Virus record (IMG/VR): IMGVR_UViG_3300017598_000441
Span: 1 to 64,000 of that record
Length of the DNA: 64,000 bases
Strand: one strand, 5' to 3'
Source of the DNA: a virus
In this document: positions 28,843 through 58,484 of the stretch, piece after piece
How positions within the stretch are numbered: the stretch's first letter is position 1
Layout of the letters: each line of letters opens with the position of its first letter
Position numbers and translations under genes: made by a program
The notes under the pieces: generated by a model
Databases searched by the model: none
Told to the model about the DNA's origin: nothing
Seen by the model: only the letters and a program-made list of their open reading frames with translations

Positions 28843-30255
28843 ATGCAAGAAAGGATACACGAATATAAGCAGGAAGATTCTACATTCTCCTTGAACAGAA
28901 AATATTTAGGGATATTGGATGCAGGTGTGTACAGAGGGTTTGATGCAATACTAGGAGACAATATGATACTTACACTTACCCACACTATGACAGGGGTTAA
29001 GCAGTATGACTTGGATTTGTCCCCAAAAGATGTAGGGGTAATCATAACCAAACAGGGGAATGTAATAAGGGAAGATGAAGATATTACACTCAATATAAAT
29101 GTAGGACCTTCTGGGTCTTATGAATCTAGGATTGACCTAATAGTAGTAGAACACAGATTTGTAGAAACTACAGGGGGTACGCAAGCATTATACTCAGTAA
29201 TAGAGGGAGTCCCAGACCAACAACCTGTAGTACCAAATCTTTTGAATGAGGCCACTCAAGTCCCTATAGCTACCATGCAGGTTTATGAAAACTCACAGGA
29301 GCTTAATGGAACTAGAAATTTCTTTAAAAAATTTCCACCCCCAAATTATTCGGGAACTTCTGATGCTTTATTAAAATCAGAAAATCTAAACGATGTAGTA
29401 GATAAACAAACTGCACGTGATAATTTACAATTAAGGCGAGGGGTTGAGATAACTTCTGAAATAGAGGATGCGGTAAATGTGGTGGCTTCTGCAATCATAG
29501 GAGGTGCAAACACTAACTTCAATACTTTAGGTAAACTAGAGGCTATACTACAAGGGGACCCAAACATAATACAGAATATTACATCTGCTTTGAGTGGTAA
29601 AGTAGATAAAATTTCGGGTAAAGGGTTATCCCAAGAGGATTTTACAGCTACTTTACTAGGCAAACTGAATAGTATAAATCTAGGGGCAGCAGTAGGAAAT
29701 GTGCCTGCTATAGGAGAGGCACTAGGGGCTAATAAGATAGTGGAGACGAATGGCTCTGGGGAACTAAAATCTGTATCAAAAGGCTCTGCACATAATAAAT
29801 CTTGGGCAGGAACAGGTGGTCACTATGGAACTTCTGGCAGTCCAGCAAGAAGCAATCACTACCACACCAGTTATGCAGCCATAGAGACAAAAGATATAAA
29901 AACAGGTACAGCTGCATTTACAGATAATACTAGTGGAGATATAGGGATAGACCCCACTTCATATACAAGGATATTAAAAACTGCAGATAAAATACTTATA
30001 GAGTTTTGTCTGAAAGTTACCCCCCTGTCTGGCTCAGTTCCAGAATTAGAGGTAGGGTTCGATGATGTATCAGTATTTCCAGTAGTTACTGGAGTATATA
30101 TTCCTTTTGTAGTTAGGCGAAGTGGTTCACCAGAACCTTGCTACTATAGACCTGTAGCATCCACCCCCACACGAGGTTTCTTTAGTATGATGTCTGGGAC
30201 ATTTAACTGGAATATTCAATATATTATTTCGGGAAGTTACACAAGAATATTATGA
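28843..30255 (+). CDS. tail fibre protein
   Basis: RIDLIV N-terminal anchor; NLNDVVDKQTARDNL, NTLGKL and KVDKISGKGLS fibre segments. Confidence 0.8.
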   Translation: MQERIHEYKQEDSTFSLNRKYLGILDAGVYRGFDAILGDNMILTLTHTMTGVKQYDLDLSPKDVGVIITKQGNVIREDEDITLNINVGPSGSYESRIDLIVVEHRFVETTGGTQALYSVIEGVPDQQPVVPNLLNEATQVPIATMQVYENSQELNGTRNFFKKFPPPNYSGTSDALLKSENLNDVVDKQTARDNLQLRRGVEITSEIEDAVNVVASAIIGGANTNFNTLGKLEAILQGDPNIIQNITSALSGKVDKISGKGLSQEDFTATLLGKLNSINLGAAVGNVPAIGEALGANKIVETNGSGELKSVSKGSAHNKSWAGTGGHYGTSGSPARSNHYHTSYAAIETKDIKTGTAAFTDNTSGDIGIDPTSYTRILKTADKILIEFCLKVTPLSGSVPELEVGFDDVSVFPVVTGVYIPFVVRRSGSPEPCYYRPVASTPTRGFFSMMSGTFNWNIQYIISGSYTRIL

Positions 30256-30908
30256 TACTAACAAAGGTAAGAGACTATCTAGACAAAGGATTGATAATTT
30301 CTGCACTAATACAATTCAGATGTATATATCCAAACATCGTAGAGGGATTAGAAATAATCACAAAATACAGAAGTTTGGAATCTACTTATCTTTTAGGGAA
30401 TATCTCAGAGCAAGAATATACAACAGGCAGAAACAAATTAGTTTCTGCTTTTTTAAATTTAATTAACACACTAGAGGAAAACCCTCCAGAAAAACCTATT
30501 ATTATGAAATTCGAGATTGAAAAACAAGTAGTAAATGGACAGGTAAATATTGCAGATACTATCAATATAGGTACGAAATTTGCAGAGACTTTCACATCAA
30601 AAAAAGAGTACAGCCCAGAAGATACAGATTTACTAAAAGTGGTTGGGGAAGTAGGGGATGAGGAGGATAAAAAAGACGTACCTACGGCTGTAGATGAATT
30701 TAATGAGGATGAGGAAAAGAAAGAAAGTGCGAAAGAAAGAATTACCAACTTCATAAAAACATACGGCACACCTATTTTTAAAATATTGGGAAAAGTGGCA
30801 TTAGGGTTACTGTTAGCTAAATATGGACTTAGTGCAAAAGATTTGTCCTTAGACAGCACTCAGAAAAAACCAGAAATAGAAGATTCAGAAATAGACGAAA
30901 AAAACTAA
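30252..30908 (+). CDS. protein with N-terminal EAD11 (effector-associated domain 11) and C-terminal amphipathic helix
   Basis: VRDYLDKG..ISAL...KYRSLESTYLLGNISEQEYTTGRNKLVSAFLNLINTL matches the EAD11 pattern as I recall it. Confidence 0.7.
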   Translation: MILTKVRDYLDKGLIISALIQFRCIYPNIVEGLEIITKYRSLESTYLLGNISEQEYTTGRNKLVSAFLNLINTLEENPPEKPIIMKFEIEKQVVNGQVNIADTINIGTKFAETFTSKKEYSPEDTDLLKVVGEVGDEEDKKDVPTAVDEFNEDEEKKESAKERITNFIKTYGTPIFKILGKVALGLLLAKYGLSAKDLSLDSTQKKPEIEDSEIDEKN

Positions 30909-30911
30909 ACC

Positions 30912-31826
30912 GTGGCAGTATCACATACTATTTTCACCGCTATTTTCATAGCCATTTTTACGATTCTTATAATAATGTACCTACTAGCTAGTAAAGCAAT
31001 AAGTAGGATAATGAAAATAGTGGCTGAAATAAAAACAGATGAAAGGAATAACCATAAGATACTGAGAGACTTGTCGGTACAAGTAACCCAATTAGGTAAC
31101 TCTTTTATAGAACTGGAGTCTAATGTGGATGTAAAATCTGGCTCGGATTTAGAATACCATACAGATATGGAATTAGTAAAACTTACCGTGCTAACTCCGT
31201 TCAATGATTTAAAATTATACCTAAACCGAAAACGTACCATATTAGTAGAGGAGGCTAAGAGGATGGCAAATATTGGAATTAAAAATTCTGATTTTACAAA
31301 TATTGAGGATAAGTGGGAGAGTATGAGATACGAGCTCAAAGATTTTTCAGATGGGTTATCGGAGGATTTCAAAAACTATAATGCAACTAAACCATCAAAC
31401 GAGCATTGGAAACTAGATGACTTTCTAAATGACTTATCCCACGCACTTAAATACGGAAATGGGAGCAGAGATATAATTTTCTTAAACCAGATGAAGGTTT
31501 ATATAAAAACTCAGTTAGAATACACGTTTAAAGATTATACTAGGTTCAAGGTGGAATCTTTAGGGGTGGATTCTTTAGATGTAAGTAAAACCTACCTAAT
31601 AAAATTACTGGAGGAGGATAATATAGAGATGGTATTATTCCAACTTCGTAACCAAACCCAAAGTAATACAGAGTTAAGCAGCAGGCTATCTCTTATACAG
31701 GCTCAGTACAACAGGCAGATAAAAGACAAGAACTCTGGCACATTCTCGGAGGAGGCTTTAAGAATATCCTGTAACAAAGTTAGGGCTGCAGTATTAGATT
31801 TTATAAAGGTAGTAGATATACATTAA
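30912..31826 (+). CDS. membrane-anchored protein with C-terminal EAD11 domain
   Basis: N-terminal TM helix, coiled coil, then LSLIQAQYNRQIKDKNSGTFSEEALRISCNKVRAAVLDFI. Confidence 0.7.
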   Translation: MAVSHTIFTAIFIAIFTILIIMYLLASKAISRIMKIVAEIKTDERNNHKILRDLSVQVTQLGNSFIELESNVDVKSGSDLEYHTDMELVKLTVLTPFNDLKLYLNRKRTILVEEAKRMANIGIKNSDFTNIEDKWESMRYELKDFSDGLSEDFKNYNATKPSNEHWKLDDFLNDLSHALKYGNGSRDIIFLNQMKVYIKTQLEYTFKDYTRFKVESLGVDSLDVSKTYLIKLLEEDNIEMVLFQLRNQTQSNTELSSRLSLIQAQYNRQIKDKNSGTFSEEALRISCNKVRAAVLDFIKVVDIH

Positions 31827-31859
31827 TTTTGGTTTATATCAAAAAATATTGTATCTTTG
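31827..31859 (+). promoter_or_regulatory. promoter of the replication module
   Basis: TTTTGG 31827 and TATCTTTG 31852-31859. Confidence 0.7.
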
Positions 31860-33486: not shown

Positions 33487-33735
33487 ATGAGAGACTTAGT
33501 AATAGCAGTACTTATACTTTTAATAGCCCTTACAGGTTGTATAAGTAACGAAAAAAGATTAGAAGATGTTAAGAATAAAAACCCCGAACTAAGAATACAC
33601 CACGACCCCAAAAGACCCTATTTGTATGTTACCAATGACAGTATAAATGAAAGATTCATAATATACGAATCTTACAGGGATATGTTCTTGGAAACTAATG
33701 CAATATATTTTCCCTACGACAGCATAAATAAGTAA
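33487..33735 (+). CDS. small lipoprotein
   Basis: Hydrophobic signal and lipobox LTGC. Confidence 0.7.
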   Translation: MRDLVIAVLILLIALTGCISNEKRLEDVKNKNPELRIHHDPKRPYLYVTNDSINERFIIYESYRDMFLETNAIYFPYDSINK

Positions 33736-43468: not shown

Positions 43469-43501
43469 TTTTGGTATATATCAAAACTTTTATTATCTTT
43501 G
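43469..43501 (+). promoter_or_regulatory. promoter
   Basis: TTTTGGTATATATCAAAA and TATCTTTG 43494-43501. Confidence 0.75.
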
Positions 43502-49143: not shown

Positions 49144-49176
49144 TTTTGGTATATTAAAAAATTTATACTATCTTTG
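49144..49176 (+). promoter_or_regulatory. promoter
   Basis: TTTTGGTATAT and TATCTTTG 49169-49176. Confidence 0.7.
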
Positions 49177-52897: not shown

Positions 52898-53235
52898 TGA
52901 CAAGAGAAGAATTAGTATCCGAAATGAAAAATGGAGTATCAGTATTCCATTTTATTAAAAAAGATGGAACCACCAGAAGAGCGGTAGGAACACTAAACCC
53001 TAAAATAATAGCAGGTTTTGAGGATTCCGTAAAACATAGGGAGCTGAAAACTAAGGTAGCAAGTGCTATCAGAAACTGTAGGGATGGATTGCATTCTGCA
53101 GAAGTAGGTCTACAGTCTTTGGAGGAGCCGACAATAGTAAGCAAAGAACGTAAACTCTACCCCAATACTCAAAATTACTATGATATTGAGAAACAGCTTT
53201 GGAGGATGTTTATAATTGAAAATTTGGTACAGTAG
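52897..53235 (+). CDS. DUF2693/WYL_2 Sm-like SH3 beta-barrel protein
   Basis: FHFIKKDGTTRRAVGTL...YYDIEKQLWRMF. Confidence 0.75.
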   Translation: MTREELVSEMKNGVSVFHFIKKDGTTRRAVGTLNPKIIAGFEDSVKHRELKTKVASAIRNCRDGLHSAEVGLQSLEEPTIVSKERKLYPNTQNYYDIEKQLWRMFIIENLVQ

Positions 53236-53266
53236 CAAGAAAAGCCGTACATTTGCGGCTTTTCTT
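53223..53266 (+). promoter_or_regulatory. promoter whose -7 box forms the loop of an 11-bp terminator-like hairpin
   Basis: TTTG 53223; AAGAAAAGCCG-TACATTTG-CGGCTTTTCTT 53237-53266. Confidence 0.65.
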
Positions 53267-53284
53267 AATTTAAAAACAATAAGG

Positions 53285-53863
53285 ATGAAGAAGTATTTAT
53301 TTATTACCCTATTCATTGCCCTAAGCAAAACAATACCCGCAGGACCTTGTGATACTCCTATACTGGAGGTAGCATTGCAAGATAAGGCTCCCGAGAAAAT
53401 ACCAGATGAGAAACTGCAGGAGTCTCAAACATTGCCAGAGGGTATTATAGAAATAATGAAACGCCACGAAGAGTTCAGTCCAGAAGTCATAATTCTGGAT
53501 AAACCTTATATAGGCTATGGGCATGAAGTTGAACTAGGTGCAGATAGGGTTACAGAGGAACAGGCAGACAGCCTACTAAGGGCAGACATTAGAATTAATA
53601 TGAATATCCTAGCAACCAAAAATCTAAGGAAATTCCATAAAAAACTGGAGCATAGGTACTTAATATTAGCCTCAGTCCTTGCTTATAATGTAGGTTGGGT
53701 AAATGTATATAAAAGTAAATTCCTAAAGAAAATAAACGAGGGATACTCAGATTCCGAAATACTAGAAGAATTTATAGGATTCCACTTCTGGAGAGGTAAA
53801 CCTCATGTAAAATTAAAAAGGAGGAGAGTGGAAGAGGCAGAAGCATGGTTAGAATTATATTGA
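53285..53863 (+). CDS. GH24 lysozyme-like protein with N-terminal signal sequence (putative endolysin)
   Basis: KRHE, IGYGH, TEEQADSLLRAD, AYNVG and LKRRRVEEA; hydrophobic N-terminus from ATG 53285. Confidence 0.8.
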   Translation: MKKYLFITLFIALSKTIPAGPCDTPILEVALQDKAPEKIPDEKLQESQTLPEGIIEIMKRHEEFSPEVIILDKPYIGYGHEVELGADRVTEEQADSLLRADIRINMNILATKNLRKFHKKLEHRYLILASVLAYNVGWVNVYKSKFLKKINEGYSDSEILEEFIGFHFWRGKPHVKLKRRRVEEAEAWLELY

Positions 53864-54210: not shown

Positions 54211-54414
54211 ATGATATTAAAACCCACCGCCTTTATTCAAGGGCATAGCTTTGATTTAAAAACCCGATTAGAAAACTATAAGAAATATAGGAAACCTAAA
54301 AGAGTGAAACCCTTGGACAGCTACACAGCTTTTATATGTTGCTATGGGGATTTGAGAGAAAATTATTTCAACCAAGAAAATTTAAAAAACACACACGATG
54401 GAATGGAGAATTAA
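54211..54414 (+). CDS. hypothetical protein
   Basis: 67-aa ORF in operon. Confidence 0.55.
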   Translation: MILKPTAFIQGHSFDLKTRLENYKKYRKPKRVKPLDSYTAFICCYGDLRENYFNQENLKNTHDGMEN

Positions 54415-56419
54415 AACCTTATCGAAGGAGTTGGACAAAATGAACCACGATTACTATGTGGTAGGAAATGGGCTATATTCAGATTACGAATATGACATGA
54501 AGTTAAAAGAATTGCAAAATCTGGAGGTGTTATACCCAGAATTTGCACTACCCACCTCACCTACGCAGAGAGTAGGTTCCGACAGAATATCTGGCTTTAC
54601 TTCTGTAAAGCATGAAACAAAAATGCTAAGTTTAGACAACTCTTATAACATAGAGGAAGTTGAAAAATGCCTAAAAAGAATAGCAGCCTCAACCGAGGCA
54701 GAGATAGGGTATGTAACCGAAATAAAAATAGATGGAGCATCTATAGAATTAGTTTACGAAGATGGAGTATTGACACAGGCAACTACCAGAGGAGATGGAG
54801 AGTTTGGAGACGATGTTACTGAAAACGTGAAAACTATCCGTTCAGTACCTTTAAAACTCAAAGGGGAGTATAAGCCTAGAATGACTTTCCGAGGTGAAAT
54901 TGTAATGCCTAAAAAGGTGCTTCTTGAAATAAACGCAAAAAGAACAGAGACAGGAGAAAAACTGTTTGCCAATGCGAGAAATGCAGCATCTGGAAGTCTA
55001 AAATCTCTGGAGCCAAAGGAGGTGGCAAAAAGAAAATTAGATTGTATCATATTTGAATCAATTTATGAATCTGAAAAAACAGTAGAGAACAGCCACCACT
55101 GGAGAATGTTGGAGGTTGAAAGCCTAGGATTTAAAACGATATTTACTGGGTTAGATATTCCTATGATGTTTACAAAAACCAATCACAAAAACATTGCAGG
55201 TATAAAAGCATTTATAGATGTCTGGGAGACCAGAAAAGATACTTTGCCGTACTTGGTGGATGGAATAGTAATAAAAGTAGATAGTATATCTTTAAGAGAG
55301 GTACTAGGTGCAGGAAGTAAATACCCTAACTGGGCATTTGCCTACAAGTATAAAGCAGAAGAAAAATCTACCTTACTCAAAGAAATTATCTATCAAGTAG
55401 GTACGTTTGGTTCAATAACTCCAGTAGGTAAGTTAGAAACAATAGTACTTTCAGATACTAACGTTTCTAATGTTATGATGAACAACCCAGACTGGATTGC
55501 TGATATGGATATTAGAGAGGGGGATTCTGTAATAGTAGAGAAGGGAGGCGAGATAATCCCTAAGATACTTAGGGTAGATTTGTCCAAAAGACTAGAAGGT
55601 GCAAAACCTATCAAGTTCATAACTCATTGCCCTTGTTGTGGAAGTGAACTCAGCAGAAAAACTACCATGAAAGGAGAGGATACAGCAAATATCTTCTGCC
55701 TCAACTCAGAAGGTTGTGCCGACCAAGTTATCGCCAAAATCAAACACCTAACCAGTAAAAAGGCTATGGATATTCAAGGACTGGGGGCAGCCACAGTTCG
55801 AGAATTATTTGAGAAAGGGTTAGTGAAAAGTCCTGTGGATGTTTACAGATTAACTTTGGAGGATTTGGAAGGAAATAAAATCAAAAACTCAAAGAATATT
55901 TACAACTCCATACAGAACTCCAAGAACTCAAAGTTCTACAGAGTAATATACTCTTTAGGCATACCGACTGTAGGCACAACTACATCAAAATTTTTAGCTG
56001 AAAGACTTGAAAATCTGGAACAACTAAAAGATGCAAGTTACCTAGACTTGAAAGAATTAGGTTTATCGGAGGGGGTTCGAGAAGAGATACATTCATACAG
56101 AGGAGAATACCTAAATGGTATTATGGAATATTTCTGTGAAAATGGATTCAATACCAATAAGGAGGAAGCTTCTGAAAAAACATCTAGTAAACTGGTGGGT
56201 AAAAACGTCATAATTTCTGGAAATTTTGGAGATGCCTCTAGAAGAAAATACTTGGAGTCTCTTATAATTGAGCACGGAGGTAAAAAACAGTCCTCAGTAA
56301 GCAAAAAGACTTCATTTGTGGTTGAGGGTGAAAAAATGGGTTGGAGTAAGAAGGAAAAAGCTATAAAACTAGGAATACCCCTAATAACGGAGGAAGATTA
56401 CTTAAAAATGTTAGACTAA
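54398..56419 (+). CDS. ligA: NAD-dependent DNA ligase
   Basis: SPTQRVG, MLSLDN, KIDG, TRGDG, NARNAASGSL, GEIIP, Zn finger and BRCT. Confidence 0.96.
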   Translation: MEWRIKTLSKELDKMNHDYYVVGNGLYSDYEYDMKLKELQNLEVLYPEFALPTSPTQRVGSDRISGFTSVKHETKMLSLDNSYNIEEVEKCLKRIAASTEAEIGYVTEIKIDGASIELVYEDGVLTQATTRGDGEFGDDVTENVKTIRSVPLKLKGEYKPRMTFRGEIVMPKKVLLEINAKRTETGEKLFANARNAASGSLKSLEPKEVAKRKLDCIIFESIYESEKTVENSHHWRMLEVESLGFKTIFTGLDIPMMFTKTNHKNIAGIKAFIDVWETRKDTLPYLVDGIVIKVDSISLREVLGAGSKYPNWAFAYKYKAEEKSTLLKEIIYQVGTFGSITPVGKLETIVLSDTNVSNVMMNNPDWIADMDIREGDSVIVEKGGEIIPKILRVDLSKRLEGAKPIKFITHCPCCGSELSRKTTMKGEDTANIFCLNSEGCADQVIAKIKHLTSKKAMDIQGLGAATVRELFEKGLVKSPVDVYRLTLEDLEGNKIKNSKNIYNSIQNSKNSKFYRVIYSLGIPTVGTTTSKFLAERLENLEQLKDASYLDLKELGLSEGVREEIHSYRGEYLNGIMEYFCENGFNTNKEEASEKTSSKLVGKNVIISGNFGDASRRKYLESLIIEHGGKKQSSVSKKTSFVVEGEKMGWSKKEKAIKLGIPLITEEDYLKMLD

Positions 56420-58001: not shown

Positions 58002-58484
58002 ATGAAAAGAATGATTTCGCTATTTACACTAGCATTTCTTATGATTGCGTTAGCATACGCAGGTCCTCCAGAAGGGGAGAATGACCCAGTAAACAAAACC
58101 TTAACAGAACTAGGACTGGACGAAGTAGATAAGAGTATTGAAGTTCTAACTTTTATTGTTACACCGAACAGCGTTGCTCAGAATGAATTTGCTGCGGTTG
58201 TACACTCCACAGAGGAGACACTTCAAAGTACTATTATTTGCAGGAAAAGGGAGACATATTTTGAAGACCCGTATTTTGATAACGACAAGCTTTTTTACAG
58301 AACTGGAGTAGGATTAACAGACAAATTATATTACCTACCTAATTGTAAAAACAGAAAGCTAAGCAACACTCTATTTTTTGGTGTTAGTTCGGGAGGTCTA
58401 TCTGGTTTGTGTAACCTAACTCAGAATACCTTTTATAAAAACTTATTAAGTAACGGAAATGGCAGCGGTGGTTTATCTCACTAA
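58002..58484 (+). CDS. secreted hypothetical protein
   Basis: Signal peptide MKRMISLFTLAFLMIALAYA; repeated SGGLS near the C-terminus. Confidence 0.7.
   Translation: MKRMISLFTLAFLMIALAYAGPPEGENDPVNKTLTELGLDEVDKSIEVLTFIVTPNSVAQNEFAAVVHSTEETLQSTIICRKRETYFEDPYFDNDKLFYRTGVGLTDKLYYLPNCKNRKLSNTLFFGVSSGGLSGLCNLTQNTFYKNLLSNGNGSGGLSH

Follow-up and report, generated by a model that had tools for sequence, protein, structure and literature searches.

A membrane-anchored EAD11 protein and a probable diverged EAD11 neighbour at the end of the structural-gene unit of a phage

Introduction

The first 64,000 bases of the IMG/VR virus record IMGVR_UViG_3300017598_000441 (bases 1-64000 of 73,679; the record is rated complete by CheckV, and this whole 64,000-base stretch is referred to below as the window) include two adjacent genes of an uncultured phage, here called A and B, that directly follow a tail-fibre-like gene. 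The product of B carries at its C-terminus a genuine EAD11, one of the effector-associated domains (EADs), together with an N-terminal membrane anchor and a conserved helical bundle, and the product of A begins with a domain that is probably a diverged EAD11. From these features it is tentatively proposed, at somewhat short of an even chance, that A and B are enzyme-less adaptors that would dock onto EAD11-tagged immune proteins of the host, so as to tether or block these at the membrane.

EADs were described by Kaur, Burroughs, Iyer and Aravind (eLife 2020, PMC7159879; eLife 2021, PMC8195603) and have been proposed to be homotypic adaptors through which effectors are coupled to a core sensor or switch, being located at protein ends and present in several copies per locus. 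The name EAD11 occurs neither in the main text of these two papers nor in a 2020 supplementary file, and the domain is known here from Pfam. No paper describing phage-encoded EADs was found; new here are a membrane-anchored EAD11 family, a probable second copy in the adjacent gene and the late-operon position of the pair.

Domain structure and topology of B

Against the Pfam EAD11 model (PF19964, gathering cut-off 26 bits), B scores 39 bits over residues 229-299, and 42.8 bits when all six frames of the genome are scanned. For residues 222-304, the Atlas model gives template modelling (TM) scores of 0.82-0.89 to EAD11 domains of Bacteroidota proteins, in which EAD11 stands alongside TIR, SIR2, CHAT, iSTAND or TPR, some of the matched proteins being stand-alone EAD11. 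The domain is centred in that phylum, with fusions to the first four of these partners, which agrees with the prominence in Bacteroidota that the original prediction, made from the sequence alone, had ascribed to it.

When B was modelled by AlphaFold2 (AF2) with its family alignment (predicted local distance difference test, pLDDT, 77), one long helix (residues 2-94), a bundle (98-217) and four helices (221-300) were obtained. The long helix begins with a strongly hydrophobic membrane helix and continues as a stalk with coiled-coil character, for which the family profile finds only weak matches among PDB sequences, to coiled-coil chains. The membrane helix, the coiled coil and the C-terminal EAD11 originally read in B are thus all present.

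In the public annotation, B begins only at ATG 31011 as a 271-aa product, without bases 30912-31010 and the membrane helix that they encode. Since this helix is kept in every relative of B, the GTG at 30912 is preferred as the probable start. A soluble form is conceivable as well, from in-frame ATG codons at residues 22 and 34. The positively charged residues that flank the helix are distributed alike in all ten family members, with 0-1 lysine or arginine (K/R) on the N-terminal side and 2-5 on the C-terminal side, from which an N-out, C-in topology is predicted, placing about 270 residues of B, EAD11 included, in the cytoplasm and about six outside.

The middle bundle, which the original prediction had not noted, has no match in Pfam, PHROG, PADLOC, NCBIfam or PDB besides generic helical bundles, and fold searches with B (Foldseek and VIA-align against PDB, and viral models) likewise returned generic helical bundles only. 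In PADLOC-DB 2.0, A has no match and B matches only BrxA (E 0.011, 13 bits), a match that is not shared by three of its relatives. No enzyme, effector or defence-family domain was found in either protein by Pfam, PHROG, PADLOC, NCBIfam or fold searches.

A probable diverged EAD11 in A

Both genes had been predicted to carry EAD11, a claim that stands for B and has to be softened for A, where neither the whole protein (21.7 bits) nor residues 1-78 taken alone (24.5 bits, E 2.7e-5) reach the Pfam cut-off, and the alignment takes in just half of the model. In the six-frame EAD11 scan of the 73.7-kb genome, A (E 6e-6) and B are the sole hits at E<=1. As these two E-values are significant in spite of the sub-threshold score, A is regarded as probably a diverged copy, short of certified membership, and it is with fairly high confidence that its N-terminal domain is so assigned.

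Several other comparisons point in the same direction. With a hidden Markov model (HMM) built from the relatives of B without B itself, A ranks first after B among 1011 frames, with identical residues on identical model positions, and only one of 3000 shuffles of residues 1-80 reaches its score; hhalign gives P 8e-4 for the domain. Single-sequence AF2 predicts helices at residues 2-11, 15-25, 30-47 and 53-76 (pLDDT 66-89), in a domain that resembles the EAD11 of B in size and end position, within a model of A that is weak overall (pLDDT 57). An Atlas language-model feature search places A nearest to an EAD11 cluster (0.79), which serves as a lead only, and no other EAD or helical family outscores EAD11. 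Comparison of A with viral structure models found nothing.

The resemblance might also be due to chance, in which case B alone would carry EAD11 and the two genes would be functionally unrelated, A being a small late protein such as a tail-fibre assembly factor or chaperone. The sub-threshold, half-model match would be in keeping with this, as would the overlap of the A start with the tail-fibre stop codon, an arrangement common for fibre chaperones, and the different gene found upstream of a relative of B (see below); with the small family HMM, moreover, a segment of the portal protein scores nearly as high as A (9.4 against 10.1 bits), which calls for caution. A coincidence is nevertheless judged improbable, since A reaches E 6e-6 in a genome whose only other EAD11 hit is the adjacent gene, three methods place identical residues on an identical part of the domain, the four-helix size and end position are those of EAD11, and no competing EAD or helical family scores better. 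As this explanation concerns A only, it overlaps with the other readings considered below.

Beyond the EAD11-like domain, a disordered linker leads to the acidic helical tract and the long helix of A, both of which the original prediction had recognized (an acidic region followed by an amphipathic helix). The helix has a hydrophobic moment of at most 0.55, a mean hydrophobicity of 0.54, compared with 0.97 for the membrane helix of B, and a hydropathy of 1.48; it may bind a membrane or a protein, and is not a confident transmembrane helix. A match of the C-terminal half to DUF6987 (16-18 bits on the acidic stretch) was rejected as probably an effect of composition. Relatives of A were found neither in 5.8 billion protein clusters, by word-indexed searches that used either the entire protein or residues 1-80, nor among GenBank phages by tblastn.

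The family of B and conservation of the pairing

Ten relatives of B (267-331 aa) were detected when 1.84 billion representative proteins were searched exhaustively with phmmer. The family, of about ten proteins, is recorded solely from metagenome sources, and searches of 185,579 species genomes, GenBank phages (tblastn), PHROGs and viral contigs did not turn it up. Its architecture is uniform: a hydrophobic helix at the N-terminus is followed by a stalk that varies, a conserved middle and a C-terminal EAD11, the last of which is detected by Pfam (E<=0.01) in seven of the ten members. Mean family identity is 31.5% in the middle bundle, 23% in EAD11 and 18% in the stalk.

A metagenome scan for the family recovered only one contig, of 1.9 kb (L004), which holds the only relative of B whose DNA was read. 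Its upstream gene, which has no match among GenBank phages by tblastn, is neither A-like nor an EAD11 gene, and MT121964, a distant phage relative with 32% identity in the portal protein, is without any EAD11. B is therefore the conserved element and A a lineage-specific neighbour. The proteins of A and B are recorded on four contigs, the longest of which (103,872 bases) exceeds the 73,679-base virus record and could represent a concatemer, a relative of larger size or a contig linked to the host.

Genome setting, promoters and host type

All genes of the genome are oriented on the + strand. Those for portal, protease, major head protein, sheath, tape measure, baseplate and tail fibre occupy 1.7-30.2 kb, and genes for a DnaB-type helicase, primase, dUTPase, a second helicase and DNA polymerase begin at 31.9 kb, followed by recombination genes and a ligase; the terminase genes lie past the end of the window. 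No match to the tyrosine integrase family PF00589 was found in the phage, which, together with the full replication set, suggests that it is probably virulent and hence an unlikely vehicle for a defence that benefits the host. No tRNA was found within the window. No related viral contig was found with the neighbouring helicase as query, and the DNA of the 7-kb region matched no phage.

A Shine-Dalgarno-like motif precedes only 7 of 94 genes, and the Bacteroidota -7 motif TAnnTTTG is over-represented (131 observed, 78 ± 9 expected). The full promoter motif, TTTG-N18-22-TAnnTTTG, is five-fold enriched (15 observed, 3.0 ± 1.5 expected), mostly lying right before genes and on the + strand in 13 of the 15 cases. 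The rarity of the former and the enrichment of the latter two suggest that the host is probably of Bacteroidota type. They lend support to this type alone, and not to the filamentous habit at which the original prediction had hinted. The pattern-based matches of the NAD-dependent DNA ligase (54398-56419, + strand) fall in Thiothrix and other Gammaproteobacteria, with identities of only 30-36%, and are uninformative on the host.

Between 26936 and 31828 the composite promoter motif does not occur, and one copy is found directly after the stop codon of B (Table 1), ahead of a helicase ATG that has a CA-rich leader. This layout supports the view that A and B are the final genes of the structural-gene transcription unit and would be co-transcribed with the structural genes, as had been supposed when the pair was placed at the end of the late operon. 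The motif is one of three near-identical extended promoter motifs (TTTGGTATATATCAAAA...TATCTTTG), at 31828-31859, 43470-43501 and 49145-49176 (+), that precede blocks of replication and recombination genes. A terminator-like hairpin falls within A, in the region that encodes helix 4 of the EAD11-like domain; it folds at -12.9 kcal/mol (z -5.06), a value that none of 200 shuffles matches. It may be an attenuator near the end of the late unit, which might reduce downstream expression.

Table 1. Positions of A, B, their domains and other features in the window
Feature	Position	Strand	Evidence or description
Tail-fibre-like gene upstream of A	28843-30255	+	PHROG tail-fibre families; tblastn match to annotated tail-fibre proteins
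Gene A	30252-30908	+	218 aa; ATG start overlapping the tail-fibre gene stop codon (ATGA)
A residues 1-77, four-helix N-terminal domain, probable diverged EAD11	30252-30482	+	Pfam, genome scan, hhalign, shuffles, AF2
Terminator-like hairpin within A	30425-30456	+	U6 run after a 10-bp stem; folding compared with shuffles
A residues 116-165, acidic helical region	30597-30746	+	18 D/E in 50 residues, net charge -9
A residues 161-192, long helix, amphipathic then moderately hydrophobic	30732-30827	+	Hydrophobicity computation
Gene B	30912-31826	+	304 aa; GTG start (preferred) 3 nt past the stop codon of A
B residues 7-25, N-terminal membrane helix	30930-30986	+	Hydropathy 2.85; in all 10 family members
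B residues 31-75, stalk helix with coiled-coil character	31002-31136	+	AF2; family profile
B residues 76-220, conserved helical bundle	31137-31571	+	Motifs LTPxxDLKxYLxxKR, YGNGS and KxYIxxQLExTFKDY; no known family
B residues 221-304, C-terminal EAD11, four helices	31572-31823	+	Pfam HMM, genome scan, fold comparison
Bacteroidota-type promoter motif	31828-31859	+	TTTG, 20 nt, TATCTTTG; directly past the stop codon of B and 23 nt before the helicase ATG (31882)
82-aa open reading frame, lipoprotein-type signal (lipobox LTGC)	33487-33735	+	Between helicase and primase genes; no family match
Endolysin	53216-53863	+	PF00959 (Phage_lysozyme), 42 bits; phrog_7
160-aa open reading frame, signal-peptide-like N-terminus	58002-58484	+	No family match

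Proposed docking onto EAD11 proteins of the host

The phage encodes docking domains with neither an enzyme nor a hub to serve them, as only two EAD11 hits occur in 73.7 kb and neither is on a nucleoside triphosphatase (NTPase); a core component of the host could supply the hub. The partner of these domains must consequently be A, B or a host protein. The original prediction had listed three possible roles for the pair, as decoys of EAD11-coupled host effectors, as a two-part exclusion or abortive system, and as holin and antiholin. The first of these appears to fit best with a phage that has no enzyme in A or B, no EAD11 hub and no integrase, and with a B family that is absent from named genomes.

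In the mechanism envisaged, EAD11 in a Bacteroidota host would join iSTAND-type hubs to TIR, SIR2 and CHAT suicide enzymes, and A and B would plug into this wiring. The single N-terminal helix would anchor B in the inner membrane with stalk, bundle and EAD11 facing the cytoplasm, where its EAD11 would contact a host EAD11 like-with-like, so that the host protein is capped or tethered at the membrane and assembly of the effector complex is prevented. With its diverged EAD11, acidic tract and amphipathic helix, A may bind either another class of host EAD11 or B, and the conserved middle bundle of B could be the part that acts beyond docking. Both proteins would be produced alongside the virion proteins, the moment at which sensors of structural proteins would fire. 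Gene order, domains, topology, family and the arrangement of promoters are results of the analysis; every binding step and the inhibitory outcome are inferred.

A number of observations weigh against this proposal. Experimental support for homotypic binding by EADs, EAD11 included, was not found in the cited EAD literature, and the host is only presumed to have EAD11 systems. The EAD11 match of A is sub-threshold and covers half a domain, its alignment being restricted to residues 38-75, equivalent to model positions 43-80 (helices 3-4, the second half). Nor do A and B resemble each other directly (BLASTP E 0.29, 30% identity across 27 residues), and they are not each other's closest relatives, A scoring 10-11 bits with the B-family HMM and 24.5 bits with the general Pfam model. 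The best conserved part of the B family is the middle bundle and not EAD11, and a simple decoy would need neither this bundle nor a membrane anchor. The pairing is absent from the contig on which another B relative was read, where the upstream gene is a different one. Finally, the end of a late operon is also a classic site for lysis genes.

Compared with the arrangement proposed for cellular EADs, the genuine copy in B and the probable one in A are likewise small, all-helical, at protein ends and in adjacent genes, with four helices at residues 2-76 of A (N-terminal) and at 221-300 of B (C-terminal), in mirrored order. The phage pair differs in that the carrier is a phage rather than a cell, in that no core component (VMAP, iSTAND, GAP1 or STAND) with EAD11 is encoded in the phage genome, in that A and B are without a known effector, enzymatic or signalling domain, and in that their EAD11 copies are not particularly close to one another.

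A virus-encoded homotypic docking domain without an enzyme is the classic design of a dominant-negative plug. Among animal viruses, adaptor-only inhibitors of death-fold signalling include vFLIP, with its DED domains, and the poxviral pyrin-only proteins, and cells themselves encode CARD-only proteins. By analogy, A and B may likewise represent the docking domain of a host death or immune pathway carried by a virus without the enzyme; B differs in its additional membrane anchor and conserved domain, and the likeness is one of design.

Lysis genes and a possible role in lysis

An endolysin gene is set among the replication genes, 22 kb downstream of B. Its start is probably the internal ATG at 53285, which would provide a signal-like hydrophobic N-terminus (MKKYLFITLFIALSK), and it has a promoter motif of its own (53223-53255) and neighbours without membrane helices; no spanin or holin was found beside it. 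Outside the tape measure, strongly hydrophobic N-termini in the genome are limited to B, the 33487-33735 open reading frame, which could encode an exclusion or spanin-like lipoprotein, and the 58002-58484 open reading frame. With only B and these two signal-type products so endowed, no classical holin is evident in the 73.7-kb genome. This survey of hydropathy and membrane helices bears out the earlier remark that no holin is otherwise evident, yet the phage does have an endolysin.

B could accordingly be imagined as a holin-like protein which, by clustering through its stalk and EAD11, would disturb the membrane and so release or activate the exported endolysin, with A as an antiholin-like regulator acting on the EAD11 of B. 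What keeps this explanation in play is the position of the pair as the last genes of the structural unit, the missing holin (B being the sole stable membrane-anchored protein apart from the tape measure, as the other hydrophobic N-termini resemble signal peptides) and an endolysin that has a signal-like N-terminus, its own promoter motif and no membrane-protein neighbour. A precedent is provided by LypABC, a CARD-NLR-like system that is required for lysis by the Caulobacter gene transfer agent, that is, a homotypic-adaptor system of immune type tied to lysis of a phage-like element, which differs in being host-encoded and in having peptidase and ATPase parts that A and B lack (PMC13236601).

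Several features make a lysis function unlikely all the same. B has a transmembrane helix, as a holin would, but its 304 residues, nearly all of them cytoplasmic by the predicted topology, are unlike known holins, and A, at a hydropathy of 1.48, does not qualify. Neither protein matches any PHROG family, whether of lysis or other function, or a Pfam holin family, the distance from B to the endolysin is large, and the B relative read in the metagenome is neighboured by genes that are not lysis genes.

T and RI of phage T4 form a holin and antiholin pair. The likeness of A and B to it would lie in a membrane protein that spans the bilayer once and bears a large soluble domain, joined by a small partner where the late genes end; B differs from T in its opposite topology, with the bulk cytoplasmic, and the pair differs from T/RI in having no family match and in not lying beside the endolysin. 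A combination of host docking and lysis can also be conceived, in which a phage without a holin would use A and B to seize the EAD11-coupled suicide enzymes of the host, B drawing either the hub or tagged effectors to the membrane at a late stage of infection, whereupon the death machinery of the host would open the cell on the schedule of the phage. Such a scheme, which would be the viral equivalent of the co-option of LypABC by a gene transfer agent, is considered highly improbable.

A possible phage-borne exclusion or abortive system

The pair might instead form a self-contained module, with B as an EAD-recruited, membrane-damaging effector that would be triggered upon superinfection through EAD11 contact with A or with a host hub. 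The combination of a membrane anchor and an EAD corresponds to an effector-type architecture (PMC7159879), the slot after tail-fibre genes often holds accessory genes, and the GC content of A is slightly low (32.7%, compared with 36.3 ± 2.0), although this value gives no clear sign of recent acquisition. Such a module is the weaker for having no sensor, as the EAD11 scan of the genome found neither a sensor nor an NTPase in the phage, and there is no PADLOC match to support it. In addition, the phage looks virulent, late expression would come too late to block a competitor at entry, and A is an orphan whose pairing with B is not conserved. This role is therefore regarded as rather doubtful, less probable than a function in lysis.

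Significance

EADs are a purely computational prediction, of small domains that would wire bacterial suicide enzymes to sensors in the manner of the death domains of animals. If this wiring is real and worth attacking, a virus with the docking domain alone, and with neither enzyme nor sensor, is what would be expected. The possible role in lysis matters too, as the holins of Bacteroidota phages are largely unknown. If docking of A and B onto host EAD11 proteins, the reading preferred here, is correct, the pair would be the first phage inhibitor to act on adaptor-to-adaptor contacts instead of on a signal molecule or an enzyme, and the membrane-anchored B family, with its conserved bundle, would represent a new type of phage accessory protein.

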